A stretch of DNA of 64,000 nt, taken from NCBI GenBank assembly GCA_976226885.1, contig OZ320318.1, positions 1,674,001 to 1,738,000 on the forward strand, written 5' to 3'. The notes beneath the pieces were generated by a model. It was not told where the DNA came from and did not search any database. It worked only from the letters and a program-made list of their open reading frames with translations. Origin of the DNA: Iphione sp. A-MEVVRFRX5 (Eukaryota). Position 1 is the first letter of the stretch; each line of letters starts with the position of its first letter. The position numbers and the translations under genes were made by a program. Positions 4,394 through 15,081 of this stretch are shown here, piece by piece.

Positions 4394-5930
4394 GTGAGTT
4401 TCCCCTAGCTATAAATATACAGTAGAACGTCCCTCTGAGAAATAACTCCTTGTAACATTAAGCACCATTGATACACAAACTCTACAAGAGTGTGGAGGTG
4501 AGTTTCCCCTAGCTATAAATATACGGTAGAACGCCCCTCTGAGAAATAACTCCTTGTAACATTAAGCACCATTGATACACAAACTCTACAAGAGTGTAGA
4601 GGTGGGTTTCACCTTGCTTGAACGTCACTCTGAGAAATAACTCATCATAGCATTAATCACCATTTGTACACGGATGAAGACCACAAGGCGCAGACCTGGC
4701 GGTCAGTACCACTCCCTCCAGCGATTTTAACCAAATCTCAATCCTACTCAACTTTACAGATTTAGTCACTTGACCTCTTGAACCAGGCAAACCTCCTCGT
4801 GTATGGAACAAAGACACGTACATCAAAATTCAGCCTTCTTACTTCCTGTCAAGTGTTGTTGAGTTCTCTGCAGCATGGATAGAGACGTGCACGTTCTGGT
4901 ATCACGAGTCAGATTCATAAGTATGGTAAATCTTGTTGTTTACGCTGGCGTATATTCCAGATAATGACATAAAACATCATCTCCCACCATCAGATCCATT
5001 AATGCCATGCATCTCCTACAGATGAACAACAGCGAGAAGCTACAGCGCCCTCTGCTGATGATGGACCGCTTTGTCAAGCAGTCACCATGGCAACCCGTTA
5101 CTCTCATGGACGTGTGCAGTGGGCGCCTGGACCACTTGAACCTGAAGCACGTGGTAAGGTAACCCACTGCATGGTTCTACCCTCTAGCATTCATTCTCTG
5201 ATATAACAAACAGAAAAATGCAGTTACTCAGTGCAAAGACACTACTCTGTTATGACTTCCAGTGTAAGGTTGTCATGCCTCTATAATAGAATCATTCTCC
5301 TATAAGAGAAGCATTCTCTCTCTCCCCCTCCCTGTCTCCCCCCATTTTTTACTCCCCGAGTCACTCTTTCACCCTTTCCCTCTTTCACGACTGAAGTATG
5401 TAGTATATTGTAAGAAACTACACTTCACGTTGATGATCCTCACAAAGTCTGTTAATTTCTGTCCATTACAGAGCAGGTTGGAGAGCCAGTTGTCTCAGGT
5501 CTATGAGCAGCTCATCAAGTTGAGTCGCTCCCTCAGGTCCTTGCTGTTGACTGGCGGTGGGCCTGCTAACCGGGAGGTGCCCACGGCTCTCTACGAGAGG
5601 CTCGGTGGCCAGACTGCTGCTGCTTGTGAGTTGCTCAACTCAGTGACTGCTGAGCTGCTTGATCTGACCCTGCTCGTACCTGCAGCTCCCTGGGTGAGTG
5701 ACTCACTAGATGGATGTATGGATATTGTTAGTAACATTTAATATGCAGTACTGTTTTTTCCTGCTGGATCTTTAGTTCTAAATACCTGCTTGAATTTTTT
5801 CATTGTTACAGTCGTATACATGTGAACAGGGCAGAATAGATGCTACTATTAACGATTAGTTGGTGAAACCACAAGGATATGGGGTAGAGGAGCGCATCAT
5901 CCTGTGTGCCAGTGTCAGGCAGTCTGTCTC

Positions 5931-5961
<31 letters not shown>

Positions 5962-8900
5962 ACCTATTTATTATTTTTTTCTCCTGGCTTTCTTTTATGA
6001 AAGCCTCCTCTTCAGAAACCGCGACTCGCCGCCCTGACGACTGATGACGTCATAAAGGCCTTACCAAACTTCCCGAAATCCAAAGCGGCTGAGGGTCGGC
6101 ATCTGATCGAGGCTCTGCTGAAGTGTTACACGCTCACCAATCACATGAACAGTCTCGAGGTACATAGACGTACAAGGTGGTTTAAAAGCTGAACGTGTGG
6201 GTGCATGTATGTAGCATGTGACTGTGGTTATCTCTGTGTGTTTGTGTGTGCATGCATTTACCCGTATATACAGAGAAAAAAAAGGGGGCGAGCTTGCTCT
6301 CTCATGTCTGGGCTACTGTGTGCACTCAACCCTCACTTGACGACCAGATCACAGACAAGGCTAGCACTGAAAGACCTGATCACAGCCGAGACTGGCTCTC
6401 TACAGAGACACGATATCTCCACTACCTGAGATGGTCTACTAAGTGAGAGGCTATCTCTTTACTCCCTTTATGTATAAATGTTTACTAAGGTACATATGTA
6501 GTGGTTGAGTTGTCTCTAGTCTCATTGTAATCATCATTTGTGAATATTGGCCCATCCCTGTTTATGTTTGAGTTTGTTTACGTGTAATATGGTTGCTCAG
6601 TGACTTACTAATAATTCATGTAAATTTGAAATTAACAAAAAGCATGTCGCCTGTGAAAAAAATGCTGATATTGTCTTTCCCTTTGTTGCAAAGTGGCTGT
6701 ACTTGAAAGTGATTATACTTTTTGTCCTACTTTGTTTTTATACAGAATAATGTATTGAAAGAAGAGCTTCTGTTCCACCAGAGGATATATGATCTACAAC
6801 AAGAATACATACAGTCATTGCTTGCTGCTGTGAAGTAGGTTAAAAAGAAGAATTATACTGTTAATGACCTCCCATTTAATGCTTTCTTTCTGTTCTGTTC
6901 TGTGTGTGGTTGTAGTTCATGGATAATGCCATGTTCGCTGCTGAATTGTGTCTGTTTTTACACTTAATGTCTTGCGAAAAGGTGTGGCAAAAGGAAAAGA
7001 ACACTGATAACCAGTAATTTGAATTCCTAAGACCAGTTACTTGGCCATAATGATACCAACCTACTGTCACCTGAAGTACCTTTACTGATTCATGATTAAC
7101 TGTTTTGTTCTATATTCTTGTTATTAATGGATAGTCGACAGCTAATTTCCCGGAAGCATTTATTAGCACTAGGTAAAAGAAATTACCAGTATCCAAGGTT
7201 AGATTTTAACATTTACGGGAGTTGTTGATTTTTTCTTCAAAAAGCTCACTACATGTATGTATATTGTTCATTTCCATAAGAGAGGGATACGGAGAGTTTG
7301 AAACGTCGACAAATAGTCTTCTCTGCCAGCCAATGACAGGTAAGGACGAATATTAACATTGTTCAAGATAATATTAGTTAGCACCACTATGAGTCGCTAC
7401 GTGGCGATGCAGGGAGATGTAGTTGGCGCCACCTGGGGTAAGGCAGTGAAGTTATTTCCGTTTGGGGTAGCAGTGCAGCGCCGGATCGCCGTCCGTCGTT
7501 TTTGATCTATTATTTTAGTTCTACATTCTGTTTCCACTCCCAAAGTGGGATTCTACCTCGTTCTACGTCGTAGAACAGGCAGATTGGTTACTGGACGTAT
7601 AACCAGCAGGGGAAAGCGTTATTTCTTCGCTTTTTGTTCGCTCCCACGTGGCGGGCAGCGGCAGCCATCTTTGACACAATGTCGAGGAGAGGGAAATCGG
7701 ATAAGCAATCCGCGGAAGGGTCCGTAGAGGAGGTTCAAGCGGTTCCCGCAGTCGTTTTACCACAACCATCGGACCCTCCACAAAATGCAGTGTTTACACA
7801 ACTTCTCACGGCAATTATAGATATGCCCAAGGCACTGGGTGATAGACTCACCACGATGGAAGAACGGTTGGAGGCAAAGCTGGGGCCAGTAGCCTCATCA
7901 AGCGGACACTCCACGCACTCAGCACGTGTCGATCTTTGGTCGTCGTCGGAAATGGGAGATACTCGATCATCCATTGCTCCGGACGAAAATCTGATCGCTA
8001 GACAAGACAGAGACCACGAACTATCCGAAGGAGAAGTCGAAGAGGACCCAGGTCCGCAAGGGTTTTATGACGAGTTAGTCACGGGCCTGGACGACGATAA
8101 AAATGTCGGGAAAGATGCACACCAGCGGGTAGCCCGCTACACGGGAGGCCGTATTAAAAGACCTCTAGAAGGAGAGGAAGCGAAGAACCTTAGAGTGAAG
8201 TACCCCAGACCGGGCAACATCCCAGACATGCAACCGCCCAAACTGAACGGAGCACTGTGGCACCATCTCCACCAATTCGCGCGTAACAGAGACAAGGTGC
8301 TACAACGCATCATGCATGCCATGGTCCCGTCTCTAACGGCGACCATCCGTCTCACAGAACTCCTCATCTCCCATGAGAAGGATGCAACCTGGATTCGCGA
8401 CGCCTTACAGCTCACGTCCGACATAATTTCGTTGGAAGTAGGGGTCCGCGATGATGTTCTAAAGTTCAGGAGAGCAGAGGTCAAGCACAACTTAAGTCCG
8501 GTGTTTAAGAGACTAGTGGAAGAGGCACACCCTTCACAACAGTGGCTTTTTGGCGACGAATTGCGCCAACACTGTCGTAACCTCGAAGATGACGAACGGT
8601 TAGCGCGCAAAATGGATAAAGGAAAATCCGGGCCCAAGTCACAGGCTAAGAACAGGCACGAACCCTACCGCAAACCGGATGGGAAGCAAGGCAAAGGAAA
8701 ATTCCAGAAACGGTACGGGAAAGGCGACTACCAGTCAACCACCACATACCGTAGCCCACTTGAAGCAGTCGATGCGTCAAAAAACGGGGCAGCGGGGCCC
8801 AACAAGACCGGGCCCCAGAAAACCCAGAACAAGTAAACGAGGTGAGTTACAACCCGCCCGCGGGAAACCTGTTAAACCATGTTGAGGGATGGGCCAGATT

Positions 8901-11900
8901 GACTTCTAACCCGGTGATCCTTAACATGATACGAGGAGTAAAAATCGATTTTACCTCCCCCCCGGTGCAAGTAGAAAGGCCACGCCCCTATGTGTTTCCC
9001 CAATGCCAAGCGGAGGCGGTCCAATGTAATATAATCAAACTCTTAGCTTCTAACACCATAGCGATTACACCGCCTGATGACCTGTTATGGGTATCAAACA
9101 TTTTCTTAAGGCCCAAACCAGACGGATCTTACCGTATGATTTTAGACTTATCACAGCTAAATCAGTATGTGAGGTACGAACATTTCAAGATGGAGAACTT
9201 TGAAACTATTCTACCACTTGTTGCCCAAGGGGCGTGGTTGGCGTCTATTGACCTAAAGGACGCCTACCATGCCATTCCCATTCACCCTAGCCACCAGCTG
9301 TACCTAGGATTCCAATGGGGCAGCACTTTCTACAGATACAAAGTGCTCCCATTTGGACTCGCCTCAGCACCTCGCATATTTACCAAACTACTTCGCCCTA
9401 TGTTGTCCGAACTTAGGGAACGAGGGGTGTCGTTAGCGGCTTATATTGACGATCTACTTATTATAGGTCATGATGAGGAGAGCTGCGATCGCTTTGTACA
9501 TCACACGCTGGATGAGGTGCAGGCTTTGGGTTATACAATCAACCATCAGAAATCTTGCCTTCGGCCTTCACCAGCTATCGCCTTCCTCGGGTATGTCATT
9601 AATGCACAAACATGCATGATCACACCCACAGAACACAAAAAACAAACGGCCAAACAACGTATCACAGAATTGTGGGACACAGACAACCCAACCATCAGAC
9701 AAGTAGCTTCCGTGATCGGCACTCTCGGAGACCTAACCAAAGCAACACCATATGGTTGGCTGCATCTTAAAGCTATGGAGCGGGAAAAGATCAGGGCACT
9801 GAAACACACACACAGCTTCAATGCACACATGCAACTGTCAGAGGAGTTTTGCTCAAACCTACAATGGTGGTATCAACATATCGACTCCATGGCAAGACCC
9901 ATCCACCCCCCGCAACCGGACATTCACATCTATACAGATGCATCAAACACAGGATGGGGAGCAGTTCATGAGGACAAGAAAACAGGGGGTTTCTGGTCAG
10001 CGGCCGAAACAAACCTACACATTAATGCACTCGAACTTAAAGCCATACTTCTGGGGCTACAGGCGTTACTGTCACACGTTTACAATACCACTATCCTGGT
10101 GTTTACTGATAATACATCTGCTGTGGCATATATTAACCACCAGGGAGGCACGCGCTCCTTGGACTGTGCCAGAATCGCTTATGACATAGGTGCATGGGCG
10201 GAGCACAAACAAAATACCCTAGTGGCTACACACATTCCGGGCGTGCTAAACACGGAGGCAGACACTCTCTCTAGAGAATCGGACAACAACATAGAATGGG
10301 AGTTGAATGATGTAATTTTTCAACACATTGTTGACAACTGGGGCACTCCCTCGGTCGATCTCTTTGCTTCCAGGTTAAATCACAAAGTAGATACCTACGT
10401 AAGCTGGCGTCCTGACCCAAATGCTTGTTTCGTAAATGCCTTTGTACTGGACTGGGGGAGTTTTGACAAATGTTATGCGTTTCCTCCCTTCAGCCTCCTG
10501 GGAAGAGTGGTGCGGAAGGTACATTGCGACAACGCCAACTGCATCGTCGTGGCCCCGTTATGGAAGGGCCAGTGGTGGTACCCGCTTGTGCGCAGTCTGT
10601 CTCAAACCCCGCCGCTCATCATTCCTCCGGCGCCCAACAACCTTATCAGTCCAGCAAAACACCACGACGCAGCCATAGCAAGCACCAGCCTCATTGTAGT
10701 CCGCTCATGGTAGAGGCAATAAGAGACTTGTCCGCAGACCCGCAGGTCTCAAGACACATCTTGCATTCATGGAGGCCTAAAACAAGAAACGTGTATCGTA
10801 GCTACCTAAACAGGTGGCATGTCTATTGCATGCAGAGGGACATTAACCCTAGACAACCCTCTCTCCACCAGGCGCATAAGTTTTTGTGTTTCCTATATGA
10901 ACAAGGTCTCAGATATAACGCCCTCAACGTGGCACGTTCGGCTCTTTCGGCAATTTTGCCTGTTTTTCAAAGCAAGTTCGGTTCTCACTCGTTTGGGGCT
11001 CACCCCGTTACTGTTAGGATTTTGAAAGGCATGTTTAATGTTCGCCCACCTCGGGCCCGCTATACCCACACGTGGGACATTGATCTTATCCTGAATCTGA
11101 TCAGGGACTGGACGCCCAACGACGCTCTCTCATTAAAGCTGTTAACCTGGAAGGTAGCCGTGTTGATTCTCCTAGCTTCCTGGGGACGATCACAAACAGT
11201 GTACAAAATTAAGAGAAGTAACATCCATTTTACACCTCAGGGTGGAGTAGTCATCACATATGACTCGGTACTAAAACATTCCAGAGCAGGTCGTAAGACA
11301 GACAAGGTTGCCTTAGACCCCCTTAAAGAGGATAGAGCACTCTGTCCGGTCCACGCTCTCAAGGTGTATTTAGCACGTACCAAAGACATTGCTGAATCGA
11401 CAGACAGACTTTTTGTTTGTATTCTTCCGCCTCATCAGGAGGCATCCCAGGCGACTTTAGTCAGATGGGTAAAACAGGTAATGACAATGGCAGGAATAGA
11501 TACCAGTGTTTTTTCTGTCCATAGCACCAGAGGTGCTGCAGCATCAAAGATGTATCACGCAGGTGTACCTATGAACGCGATACTCGCTAAAGGTATGTGG
11601 GCATCAGAGTCCAGCTTCCGGAAACATTATTGTAAACCGGTACAAGGAACCGGTCGCAAAGCTTAAATAGCTCATGATGGTCAAAACAAACGGAGGTTAC
11701 CTCCTCCATTCGGGGGCCTAACCCCCAGTCTACGAACAACAGGTTATAATGTTCCTTGGGTAGGTGCTCGTATCCGACACACTACCAGTTTTTTGCTAGT
11801 TCTTGCCCTCCTTGTAGGGGCCTTTCGTTGGAGTTGTTTCAGCAATAAAAAGTCACATTGCTTGTATTTCACGTGTTGAGACTGAGTCTGTTCAGGGTTT

Positions 11901-14900
11901 AGCCCTGCTACCACGGTCACCTAGCACGTCTTCGAAGTCTCCCTGCATCGCCACGTAGCGACTCATAGTGGTGCTAATTACATGGTTTGGCTAGACTTAC
12001 CTGGTAAGTTGACGTCAAACCCTGGTTAGCACCATATGAGAAGCGTAGTGGGGAGGAAGGGCCCACCCTCCTCCCCTATAGCGCTCTCATATTGCCCCAC
12101 TAGCTCGCTGTGGGCGCTGTCCAGTAGAGGTACTAGGCTCCCTCCTCACTGTAAAAACTTTAATCACTGCCTTACCCCAGGTGGCGCCAACTACATCTCC
12201 CTTCCTCCCCACTACGCTTCTCATATGGTGCTAACCAGGGTTTGACGTCAACTTACCAGGTAAGTCTAGCCAAACCATGTAATTTACAGACACCAAATTG
12301 TTTCACGTATATGTAATCAGTGGCGCTCAGGCGAACTGATAGAGGATACAGTATAGAAAGTTGTTAAAGGTCCACTATAGGTAACAGTGGAAGGTCCGGT
12401 TTTGTATGTGTGGAGAGGTACGTGTGAATATTCACTCAGGTACAATAAATGTTCCCTCAGATACAGGCCCGTAGCCAAAGGGGTATCAGGGGTATCGTCC
12501 GATACCCCACGCAAAACCTAATGCACATAGCCTTGCACATAGGCATAAGGACACGCTCATCCAGGAGTTCCACCTCTGGGGTATCGGAGGTATTGTCCGA
12601 TACCCCCAGAACAATTCCTGGCTACAGGCCTGAGATACATGTGAATGATAACAGTCGTGTGTGACTATTGATGTTGGAGCCTGCCTCAGGCCTCAGTCAG
12701 CATCCCATGTACCTTGATGAGATAAGCCTTCTGGCATGGAGGGGGTAAGGAGGTATATGTGTGCGTGTGTGTGTGTGCGTGTAGGCTGCCTGAGCTGCAC
12801 ATGGAAGCTCATAGCTGCACCTTCTGCTAGTAGTAAATGACAGTGTCTCTACAGAATTAAGCATGTTCAATAGAAACCGCCATAGTACACGTATGTCTAA
12901 TTCAAGTACATGTATATAAAATGAGGCTATGTGAGTCTGATCAGTGAAAAAATATGTATTAATAGTATTAATTCATAATTTTTATATTTCAGTATTATCT
13001 ACAGTAAGTGATATATGACTTAAATAACGCTAACTGCTGAAAATGAAATTTATGTAGATGTATAGAGCTTGACAAGAGTGTTGACAAGCACGAGGATTCA
13101 TAACTCTCTTCATGTCAGCTTCGTTTCTCAATTGAATGTTCCTTTGAAGTAGATACCTGAACACTTGGTTGTTTTTATTTCCCGTCTTAGTTTCATGACA
13201 ATGTTTTGTTTATTGTAGTTATTTTGGAGAAGTACCACCTGCTGCAGTCGACGGCCTCAGAGGAAGCTCTGCGTGAGTTCATCACGGTCTTCAAGAAACA
13301 TGCTGATCAGGTAAAAACACATGGCTGAGAAAAAGACTAACCTTTCATGATATGACTAACATATAAACAACACCATTGAAGTTAAATAGACCTGTTTAAA
13401 TTATACTAACCTTTCATGATATGACTATCATATATTTATAACAACACCGAGTAAGATAAACCTATTTAATATCAGGCAGTGTCCAAAATGACATGATTGA
13501 CCTGATTCTTTGTGTGTAAAACTGCACACAGATTGGGGGAAATATTCAGGGATATGGGGGGTATCTTTTTGATACTCAGATTCGAGAGTCAAAATCAAGC
13601 TACTAGTCTTGTGAATGGCATACAACTACGATAAAAAAATGCCCGATTTATTGTCTGCAGATAGAAGAGACAGTCTCAGCCCTGACACCTGAAGAGGGGA
13701 AGTCCTCGGGAGGTAAGCGTATAAATTCGTGTTTTACTTGTCCCATCCTCAAGGAAGGATGTATATAGGAGTGTTTCTCTTCTAAAATGCAATCCAAAAC
13801 CCTGAAAAAGGGCAAGGTAAGTGTATGTACAGTTCTCTATGATACGTGAGACAACTGGGTTTGGAGATTCCGCTAAAATAGGTCTCTTGTTGACTAGAAA
13901 TTATTTGGAGAAATAACTGAGAATCTAGCATGTGTTCTCTCTATCCTCTCTGAGTCAGTATATAAGATTAAAGCCATGGACGAGAAGTAAGTGAGAATTC
14001 GTCATGTGTTCTCTCTCTCTCTGCTAAGTCAATATGGATGATGAAAGCCATGGGAAATTTTTAAGAAGACCAGCCTCTGAATCAAAACAGACTTTAATAT
14101 TGCGCTTAATTTAATTTAGGTGTATGATCTAGATTAATTCAGATAAGCAAATATTGATAAATTGTTGATCATATTCCTTCTTATTTAGTTGGTAGGGAAG
14201 CATTGTCAGCCTTTGGGGACCAGTTTCTCTCCTCTGTGGAGAAAATCCGGCGAGACTGTCGTCTGAAGAGGGATGAGTTAGTTGCTGACCTGGACGAAGT
14301 GAAAAGACAGCGCCAAGATCATCTCGATGCCATCAAGGACATGTTTGGACCAGCCAAGGGAGAGACAGCAGAGGACCCAGGTGAATTGTATGATGAAATT
14401 ATAGGCAAGACAGAGAGCCTCAACCTCTCACCCAGCAACCTGGAAGAGGAGGTATCAGATCATAACAAGCAGCAGAAGAAGAATATGGCTAGGTCCAAGG
14501 ATACCAAGACATCGCGTGTTGGAGAAGGCAGTATGCGCTCGAGTGGAAGAGAGCAGTCATCACCATCAGTTACCACCATGACACACGATGGCTCCGTTTG
14601 TAGTTGTGGCATGGCTGACTGTGATGAAACACTGCACACTTCCAGGACAGACCCCAGACAAGAAGATGCCAGTGAAAAGGCTGGCAGTGAGACTGATAGT
14701 GACAAAGTGGGTGAAGCAAATATCACTCAAACTGGGAGTCAGGCCCGTCGACCCTCAAGCCTGGGTGACGTGGCATCCCGGGGAAATTCAGGTCCAAACC
14801 GGAGGACACCACCAACCCCACGCACATCACGGCTTCCAGCCCCATCACCCTCCCCACTGACGGCTCGCACCAATGGACGCAGTAATAGCACCCCGGGACG

Positions 14901-15081
14901 TTCAAGACTACCAACACAGCACATGCGCAAGAGCCTTCTCCCAGGAGCAAGTCCAGCGCCTAGTTCCAGGGGACACATACTACCAGGGGGCCGGTTGACA
15001 CCCATCAACAAACTGGTGCTGAAACCACGGTCAGGAAGTGAAACTAGAGCGTCAGTAGATCAGGAGGGGGATTTACCTTAG
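4267..15081 (+). CDS. Host gene 1 (5'-partial), uncharacterised helical/coiled-coil protein with a Ser/Pro/Arg-rich tail
   Basis: join(4267..4393,5022..5153,5472..5693,6016..6159,6746..6834,7281..7339,13219..13310,13661..13712,14189..15081). All introns GT-AG, phases match throughout, no internal stop. Family not recognised. Confidence 0.85.
4373..4620 (+). repeat. 104-bp tandem repeat (~2.4 copies) containing the exon 3' end and its donor
   Basis: AAACTCTACAAGAGTGTGGAG|GTGAGTTTC recurs at 4373, 4477 and (diverged) 4581. Confidence 0.9.
5022..5153 (+). CDS. Host gene 1 exon (MNNSEKLQRP...NLKHV)
   Basis: ctacag| ... |gtaagg, 132 nt, phase 0-0. Confidence 0.8.
5472..5693 (+). CDS. Host gene 1 exon (SRLESQL...VPAAPW)
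   Basis: ttacag| ... |gtgagt, 222 nt. Confidence 0.85.
6016..6159 (+). CDS. Host gene 1 exon (KPRLAAL...HMNSLE)
   Basis: cttcag| ... |gtacat, 144 nt. Confidence 0.8.
6746..6834 (+). CDS. Host gene 1 exon (NNVLKEELLFHQRIYDLQ...)
   Basis: atacag| ... |gtaggt, 89 nt, phase 0-2. Confidence 0.8.
7281..7339 (+). CDS. Host gene 1 exon (EGYGEFETSTNSLLCQPMT)
   Basis: cataag| ... |gtaagg, 59 nt, phase 2-1; links the flanking exons in frame. Confidence 0.8.
7378..7449. repeat. DIRS left inverted terminal repeat
   Basis: 7412-7449 is the exact reverse complement of 12164-12201; the outer part matches imperfectly. Confidence 0.9.
7679..8836 (+). CDS. DIRS gag-like ORF1 (385 aa)
   Basis: First ATG at 7679; PxP.LN..LW..L...R..D..LQ motif typical of DIRS gag; basic C-terminus. 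Confidence 0.85.
   Translation: MSRRGKSDKQSAEGSVEEVQAVPAVVLPQPSDPPQNAVFTQLLTAIIDMPKALGDRLTTMEERLEAKLGPVASSSGHSTHSARVDLWSSSEMGDTRSSIAPDENLIARQDRDHELSEGEVEEDPGPQGFYDELVTGLDDDKNVGKDAHQRVARYTGGRIKRPLEGEEAKNLRVKYPRPGNIPDMQPPKLNGALWHHLHQFARNRDKVLQRIMHAMVPSLTATIRLTELLISHEKDATWIRDALQLTSDIISLEVGVRDDVLKFRRAEVKHNLSPVFKRLVEEAHPSQQWLFGDELRQHCRNLEDDERLARKMDKGKSGPKSQAKNRHEPYRKPDGKQGKGKFQKRYGKGDYQSTTTYRSPLEAVDASKNGAAGPNKTGPQKTQNK
8764..10713 (+). CDS. DIRS ORF2: reverse transcriptase, RNase H, DAM-like methyltransferase domain
   Basis: DLKDAY, LPFGL..APRIFTK, YIDD; RNase H TDAS..GWG, HINALEL, TDN, N.EAD.LSR; MT DLFAS..AFPPF. Frame open from 8764; first ATG only at 8926. Confidence 0.95.
   Translation, partial: SSRCVKKRGSGAQQDRAPENPEQVNEVSYNPPAGNLLNHVEGWARLTSNPVILNMIRGVKIDFTSPPVQVERPRPYVFPQCQAEAVQCNIIKLLASNTIAITPPDDLLWVSNIFLRPKPDGSYRMILDLSQLNQYVRYEHFKMENFETILPLVAQGAWLASIDLKDAYHAIPIHPSHQLYLGFQWGSTFYRYKVLPFGLASAPRIFTKLLRPMLSELRERGVSLAAYIDDLLIIGHDEESCDRFVHHTLDEVQALGYTINHQKSCLRPSPAIAFLGYVINAQTCMITPTEHKKQTAKQRITELWDTDNPTIRQVASVIGTLGDLTKATPYGWLHLKAMEREKIRALKHTHSFNAHMQLSEEFCSNLQWWYQHIDSMARPIHPPQPDIHIYTDASNTGWGAVHEDKKTGGFWSAAETNLHINALELKAILLGLQALLSHVYNTTILVFTDNTSAVAYINHQGGTRSLDCARIAYDIGAWAEHKQNTLVATHIPGVLNTEADTLSRESDNNIEWELNDVIFQHIVDNWGTPSVDLFASRLNHKVDTYVSWRPDPNACFVNAFVLDWGSFDKCYAFPPFSLLGRVVRKVHCDNANCIVVAPLWKGQWWYPLVRSLSQTPPLIIPPAPNNLISPAKHHDAAIASTSLIVVRSW
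10707..11666 (+). CDS. DIRS tyrosine recombinase
   Basis: N-terminal SAM-like domain, catalytic R (WGRS), LCPV..L..Y, HSTR, W..ESSFRKHY. The ATG overlaps the ORF2 stop; the frame is also open further upstream. Confidence 0.93.
   Translation: MVEAIRDLSADPQVSRHILHSWRPKTRNVYRSYLNRWHVYCMQRDINPRQPSLHQAHKFLCFLYEQGLRYNALNVARSALSAILPVFQSKFGSHSFGAHPVTVRILKGMFNVRPPRARYTHTWDIDLILNLIRDWTPNDALSLKLLTWKVAVLILLASWGRSQTVYKIKRSNIHFTPQGGVVITYDSVLKHSRAGRKTDKVALDPLKEDRALCPVHALKVYLARTKDIAESTDRLFVCILPPHQEASQATLVRWVKQVMTMAGIDTSVFSVHSTRGAAASKMYHAGVPMNAILAKGMWASESSFRKHYCKPVQGTGRKA
11938..12061. repeat. DIRS internal complementary region (ICR)
   Basis: 11938-11977 is complementary to the left end 7378-7417; 11976-12061 is complementary to the right end 12199-12284. 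Confidence 0.92.
12164..12284. repeat. DIRS right ITR plus 3' extension
   Basis: Pairs with the left ITR and with the ICR as described above. Confidence 0.9.
12464..12632. mobile_element. MITE-like element (169 bp)
   Basis: TIR CAGGCCCGTAGCCA / TGGCTACAGGCCTG (1 mismatch); AGATA duplicated on both flanks; internal GGGTATC..GATACCC hairpins. Confidence 0.65.
13219..13310 (+). CDS. Host gene 1 exon (ILEKYHLL...KHADQ)
   Basis: ttgtag| ... |gtaaaa, 92 nt. Confidence 0.8.
13661..13712 (+). CDS. Host gene 1 exon (IEETVSALTPEEGKSSG)
   Basis: ctgcag| ... |gtaagc, 52 nt. Confidence 0.8.
14189..15081 (+). CDS. Host gene 1 terminal coding exon
   Basis: atttag| acceptor in frame with ORF 14203..15081; stop TAG. 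Confidence 0.85.

Follow-up and report, generated by a model that had tools for sequence, protein, structure and literature searches.

DIRS1-like retrotransposons, as described in PMC3266345, PMC7192593 and PMC9210276, carry ORFs for gag, for reverse transcriptase, RNase H and methyltransferase (RT/RH/MT) and for an overlapping tyrosine recombinase (YR), together with inverted termini, an internal complementary region (ICR) and NTT ends. The available portions of these accounts describe overlapping ORFs and do not state how ORF2 or YR is translated, nor do those of PMC6681497, PMC3783388, PMC5633606, PMC3950715 and PMC4157794. Our literature search found neither a slip nor a splice described for DIRS1-like elements; Repbase entries, supplements and Poulter and Butler 2015 may say more. 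At the locus reported here, in contrast, we identified a candidate slip site, stimulator, splice donor and splice acceptor.

Frameshifting by −1 between gag and pol is known from retroviruses and animal LTR retrotransposons (PMC5009743, whose available portion does not mention DIRS). The present element differs from these in that no protease or DDE integrase was found in it and in that the shifted frame would branch, by a predicted splice, into RT or YR. Programmed frameshifting has also been proposed for a YR retrotransposon, since the available part of PMC13003380 quotes Poulter and Butler 2015 as conjecturing it for the YR ORF of Ngaro-like elements. That conjecture, as quoted, concerns the pol/YR overlap of another superfamily and names no signal, whereas here the slip would occur between gag and pol and YR would be reached by splicing. 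In retroviral env and foamy-virus pol, one transcript gives a second product, an envelope or an enzyme, after an intron has removed part of the coding region, and the spliced ORF has its own start. In the present element the predicted donor comes after the gag stop, in the −1 frame, and production of the spliced form would therefore still depend on the slip. We propose, with a probability of roughly 0.78, that a slip cassette near the end of gag drives frameshifting into RT/RNase H/MT and that a predicted intron lets the shifted ribosomes reach YR.

The element and its surroundings

The window, which is the whole 64,000-nucleotide stretch of Iphione sp. DNA that was analysed, holds the following parts of the element.

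7377–12284, + strand: DIRS1-like tyrosine-recombinase retrotransposon with three open ORFs (ORFs, Pfam, terminal repeats, ends)
7377–7449, + strand: left terminus, inverted terminal repeat (inverted pairs I2 and I3; copies diverge upstream)
7679–8836, + strand: gag (ORF1), 385 aa, ATG to TAA (homologues align)
8785–10713, + strand: pol (ORF2: RT, RNase H, Dam-like MT) as entered by a −1 slip; predicted Gag-Pol of 1011 aa
10494–11666, + strand: YR exon, 390 aa (ORFs, Pfam); predicted Gag-YR of 778 aa
11938–12061, + strand: ICR (inverted pairs I1 and I3)
12164–12284, + strand: right terminus, inverted terminal repeat (inverted pairs I1 and I2)

Under the definition taken from the available part of PMC3266345 (inverted termini, ICR, NTT ends), 7377–12284 is a DIRS1-like element. 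It has pol domains, a YR ORF, an upstream gag-like ORF, inverted termini with an ICR complementary to both ends (inverted pairs I1–I3), and NTT ends (GTT at the start, ATT at the end). Comparison of genome copies placed the left end at a point common to them, and the left and right parts of the ICR overlap at 11976–11980. The 385-aa ORF has 4509 library relatives at E≤0.001 and no Pfam family in a Pfam search, and its label 'gag' rests on position and family convention. In pol, Pfam matched RVT_1 (1e-23), RT_RNaseH (2.6e-06) and Dam (6e-04), the last two weakly and Dam below its cut-off. Phage_integrase matched within 10467–11666 (7e-08), in a YR ORF that overlaps the end of pol, and neither a protease nor rve (DDE integrase) matched in the three ORFs at E≤0.1.

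Donor-like motifs, part of a short palindrome, occur at 12002–12010 in the ICR and at 12255–12265 in the right terminus. Exon-like pieces on the + strand flank the element (5268–5741, about 13230–13310 and 14161–15081); the element may therefore lie inside a host-gene intron in sense orientation, and none of the pieces matched a Pfam family above cut-off. The genome holds many DIRS families with open ORFs, some as near-identical copies, which suggests recent DIRS activity.

Candidate frameshift signal between gag and pol

ORF2 lies in frame −1 with respect to gag and overlaps it over 73 nt (8764–8836), up to the gag stop TAA at 8834–8836. The parts of the junction are as follows.

8761–8763, + strand: TGA, the last pol-frame (−1) stop before the slip site
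8779–8785, + strand: slippery heptamer A_AAA_AAC in gag phase (sequence and conservation)
8786–8793, + strand: 8-nt spacer, constant in length in the A_AAA_AAC clade and about 6–7 nt in the G_GGA_AAC clade
8794–8816, + strand: 7-bp GC hairpin with a 9-nt loop, predicted frameshift stimulator (pairing, covariation, fold)

A −1 frameshift at this place had been proposed in the initial annotation, and every coordinate that it gave for slip site, stem, stops and overlap proved correct on recheck, as did the position of the first ORF2 ATG (8926), downstream of the conserved ORF2 N-terminal segment. The site has the X_XXY_YYZ form in the upstream frame, within the overlap and with the downstream ORF in −1, and it is the sole canonical heptamer in gag phase across the whole gag ORF. 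The stem arms are 8794–8800 and 8810–8816. Folding of the 60 nt that follow the heptamer gave −21.4 kcal/mol (z −2.4, matched by 4 of 200 shuffles), a modest result for the fold strength of this single copy against chance, and the case against chance comes from the relatives. A longer stem running through the hairpin loop was unsupported (15.7% paired), and no pseudoknot partner for the loop was seen by eye. Rfam returned no family for the site and one chance match, and a viral contig scan found nothing matching.

Searching the element's own genome at the DNA level, we scored 40 of 179 candidates and obtained 41 matches, and the 30 best copies (72–100% identity) were taken as the close-copy set. 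The heptamer is present in 29 of these 30. The tight overlap, which the initial annotation had stressed, exists at this locus and is not conserved, as the upstream −1-frame stop shifts between copies. Identity at third positions of gag in the 30 copies reaches 0.945 in the cassette versus 0.62 in the gag core and 0.61 at the start of pol; part of this high identity reflects dual coding after the slip site. The first A of the heptamer and its Lys codon are not dual-coded, and the slip Lys is AAA in 29 of the 30 copies, compared with 4 to 25 for the 19 other Lys columns.

A further 110 own-genome loci were taken from protein and DNA searches. Among 129 loci with a mappable junction (seven clade-B loci and four without an anchor were excluded), 123 keep a heptamer there. 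When the K-N pair of gag was located by protein, its Lys was AAA in 94/95 loci versus 521/1037 gag-wide, and the preceding codon ended in A in 94/95 with its residue variable. The stem also covaries: 67 distinct cassettes from the first 100 loci gave 25 double-change cells versus 6.3 in shuffles, a value reached by 0 of 500 shuffles, with the reservation that stem counts are inflated by relatedness and that the double changes fall on only three pairs (a spread that 57 of 500 shuffles reach). Across the 7-bp stem, 95.9% of 465 cells are paired and three pairs carry compensatory type swaps, whereas slid stem controls drop to 70% pairing or less. A sister clade (21 representatives, 43–48% pol identity) carries G_GGA_AAC and an unrelated 10–13-bp hairpin in the same place.

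The signal recurs in other hosts. A metagenome scan found 379 relatives, of which the best 80 (33–43% identity) were used, and pooling brought the loci examined to 204. The junction is intact in 150 of them, and 141 of these have pol in −1 to gag. Clustering at 70% RT identity gave 66 clusters, which are kin rather than independent draws, and 59 of them hold an in-frame canonical heptamer inside the overlap, whereas the heptamer rate in these ORFs predicts 8.6. Heptamers in the other two frames occur in 22 and 4 clusters, with most of the 22 due to stem arms in the G_GGA_AAC clade. In a set of 62 representatives (two of these rows are damaged copies of other families) the types are G_GGA_AAC (21), U_UUU_UUA (17), A_AAA_AAC (16), U_UUA_AAC (2), A_AAA_AAU (1) and G_GGU_UUU (1), with none in 4. 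The six types require 11 changes on a quick tree, and four of them are among the shiftiest heptamers listed in the available part of PMC5009743. Swaps of heptamer with frame and place held are as predicted by selection for ribosomal slippage.

The stimulator is less uniform. Downstream of the heptamer, a stable fold (z≤−2) occurs in 30/33 own-genome and 5/25 metagenome representatives, as against 3/58 upstream controls; a covarying 3′ structure 5–9 nt downstream is present in the clade of this element and weak in most metagenome families. In the metagenome loci (L141–L220) U_UUU_UUA is the commonest heptamer, often followed by GG as in HIV-1 and mostly without a strong local hairpin. Gag tails are enriched in FLG (26/134) and KNG (11/134), which fit the heptamers, and also in FR and FQ, so that this enrichment would be weak evidence for frameshifting. 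Together, heptamer conservation, stem covariation and recurrence in distant DIRS families support the −1 reading, and A_AAA_AAC with its hairpin very probably drives the shift from gag into RT/RH/MT.

Predicted intron and routes to the recombinase

The frameshift interpretation in the initial annotation thus holds up, and it was incomplete: the GTG at 8842, there considered as a possible start codon, coincides with a predicted splice donor that had been overlooked. The predicted intron, 8842–10493, has the following sites.

8839–8847, + strand: predicted 5′ splice site, intron from 8842, 5 nt after the gag stop and in phase 0 of the −1 frame
10463–10467, + strand: branch-point-like pentamer, whose TGA is the last YR-frame stop
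10480–10493, + strand: predicted polypyrimidine tract and 3′ splice site, overlying the FPPF-S motif of the MT domain, in YR phase 0

In the scheme that we propose, most ribosomes would stop at 8834 and yield Gag (385 aa), and a fraction, paused at the hairpin, would slip on A_AAA_AAC and bypass the gag stop. On unspliced RNA the slipped ribosomes would make Gag-Pol of 1011 aa. Where splicing has joined 8841 to 10494 and taken out the 1652-nt intron, they would pass through 19 codons in the −1 frame and go on into YR, giving an in-phase Gag-YR of 778 aa.

The donor consensus is kept in 30/30 close copies and in 124/129 own-genome loci, and a donor lies near the gag stop in 58/62 representatives versus 66/619 control windows. 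The acceptor CAG ends at 10493, and YAG is found there in 123/123 own-genome loci, although the FPPF-S acceptor counts as one inherited site. Splice scores here are simple match counts and not the output of a trained model. At four metagenome loci (L142, L145, L175 and L184) tandem donors stand 4 nt apart behind the gag stop, the first in phase 0 and the second in phase 1.

Splicing could be real and the frameshift could make Gag-Pol while the spliced RNA gives a separate YR, with ribosomes either reinitiating past the gag stop or starting at an AUG that belongs to YR. The donor does lie close behind the gag stop, and an ATG in the YR frame precedes the conserved YR core in 39/49 representatives, this element included (near 10560 and 10707). 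No such ATG position is common to the families, however; in several the first lies more than 500 nt in, and 10/49 representatives have no Met before the core at all. Database proteins could also be read in favour of a separate YR, with no Gag-YR protein, and none over 643 aa, among the best 150 of the 4509 Gag relatives, but a slip-dependent fusion would not be called as one ORF. Conservation of phase matters only if ribosomes cross the junction. Of 58 representatives, 53 have the donor in phase 0 of the −1 frame, a contrast of 53 to 5 with phase 1 and not a three-way one because phase 2 is barred by a pol stop, and acceptors that have moved stay in phase 0. We rate separate production of YR as unlikely; translation across the splice junction as a Gag-YR fusion is the likely route. 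Two automated protein models from Diadema antillarum (XP_071483612.1 and XP_071502116.1) connect Gag with the YR frame and contain no RT, leaving Gag at two different points of its core and entering a few codons before the predicted acceptor; they were not counted as support for Gag-YR.

If protein constraint (on V-S in pol and on FPPF-S in MT) had instead produced the splice-like motifs as a by-product, the frameshift would still make Gag-Pol and YR would be reached in some other way. FPPF is encoded by pyrimidine-rich codons in any case, and among 140 own-genome loci, most of them chosen by RT match and only 20 of them orphan gag/YR hits, we saw no spliced copy. Coding need nevertheless accounts poorly for the pattern. 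The donor sits in a poorly conserved linker and is yet kept in 58/62 representatives. The FPPF-S Ser that supplies the acceptor AG is encoded by AGY in 40/44 cases versus 416/2011 (21%) elsewhere in pol, and YTRAY occurs 16–42 nt before the acceptor in 22/40 versus 5.2 in control windows. This AG is missing from families with FPPF-C or with a TCN-encoded Ser in FPPF-S; there, the first good acceptor in phase 0 is found at +23 to +26, +179 to +185 or +221 to +227 rather than at +14. The acceptors have moved downstream by 9 to 213 nt, in each case to the last YR-frame stop or beyond it, and in 8/49 representatives the acceptor TAG is itself that stop. This joint shift of acceptor and YR-frame opening is the best independent evidence for the intron. 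Donor, branch point, pyrimidine tract and AG are thus conserved as a GT-AG set beyond coding need; a by-product origin is very unlikely, and 8842–10493, which carries RT/RH, is probably removed by splicing.

The search for spliced copies comprised own-genome gag and YR searches, with 150 matches listed for each and compared by eye, and inspection of the 20 orphan hits. Two loci (L110 and L111) do connect gag to YR, by a deletion that starts before the heptamer and leaves the splice sites unused. They share this one internal deletion, from the gag tail into YR, and are possibly a non-autonomous subfamily. Spliced RNA would retain both termini and the ICR, and truncated DIRS-1 can be mobilised in trans, according to the available part of PMC7192593; the absence of intron-less copies from L001–L140, a sample biased to RT-bearing copies, suggests selective use of unspliced RNA.

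One group of families differs in layout. In clade B (L093–L099, 43–44%) the donor lies 9 nt before the gag stop and in gag phase, and the acceptor is at +26, moved by 12 nt and in YR phase 0; Gag-YR would thus arise by splicing alone, without a slip. Five clade-B loci (L093 and L095–L098) have A_AAA_AAC followed after 7–8 nt by four G tracts and no hairpin, whereas L099 has no canonical heptamer. The G tracts are a possible G-quadruplex stimulator, although the coding of an Arg-Gly-rich gag tail could explain them.

Last, ORF2 might be reached without any slip: ribosomes could start at GTG 8842 or at an internal AUG, the RNA could be spliced into ORF2, or the polymerase could slip along the A run, and the hairpin would serve packaging or splicing control. 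We rate this as extremely unlikely. In its favour, GTG 8842 is invariant in the 30 closest copies, an ATG 11 codons past the conserved Trp is common in the own genome and a strong hairpin is absent in many distant families. Against it, 34 of the 60 representatives that have a phase-0 donor carry GTG at 8842 and 26 carry GTA, so this codon is no general start; no Met precedes the conserved Trp in 51/62, and acceptor-like sites before the pol core occur in only 14/62, scattered and in all phases, with no conserved acceptor leading into ORF2. Polymerase slippage does not fit G_GGA_AAC and U_UUA_AAC, which are not homopolymer runs, nor the keeping of gag phase by all types. The pol frame is closed within 60 nt before the heptamer in 80/118 loci with a heptamer and within 45 nt after it in 0/118.

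Implications for DIRS1-like elements

Signals like the slip cassette and elements like this one are both known; the combination of the cassette with the predicted intron was not found in print and is conserved across many families. We think it fairly likely that animal DIRS1-like elements share one program, in which a single −1 slip is followed by alternative splicing that picks Gag-RT/RH/MT or Gag-YR, with the acceptor in the catalytic FPPF motif and with some families rewired (a donor before the gag stop, Gag-YR without a slip and maybe a G-quadruplex stimulator).

DIRS1-like elements are widespread in animals, and exact coordinates are now offered for the proposed translation routes of RT and YR. 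If the scheme is true, both enzymes are Gag fusions whose ratio would be set by the slip rate times the splice rate, and annotations that start ORF2 and YR at the first ATG would be wrong for many families. The families would also provide a large collection of naturally occurring −1 signals in which heptamers and stimulators have been exchanged. We infer that joining the enzymes to Gag serves packaging; this would account for the way in which an element lacking a protease gets its enzymes to its RNA.
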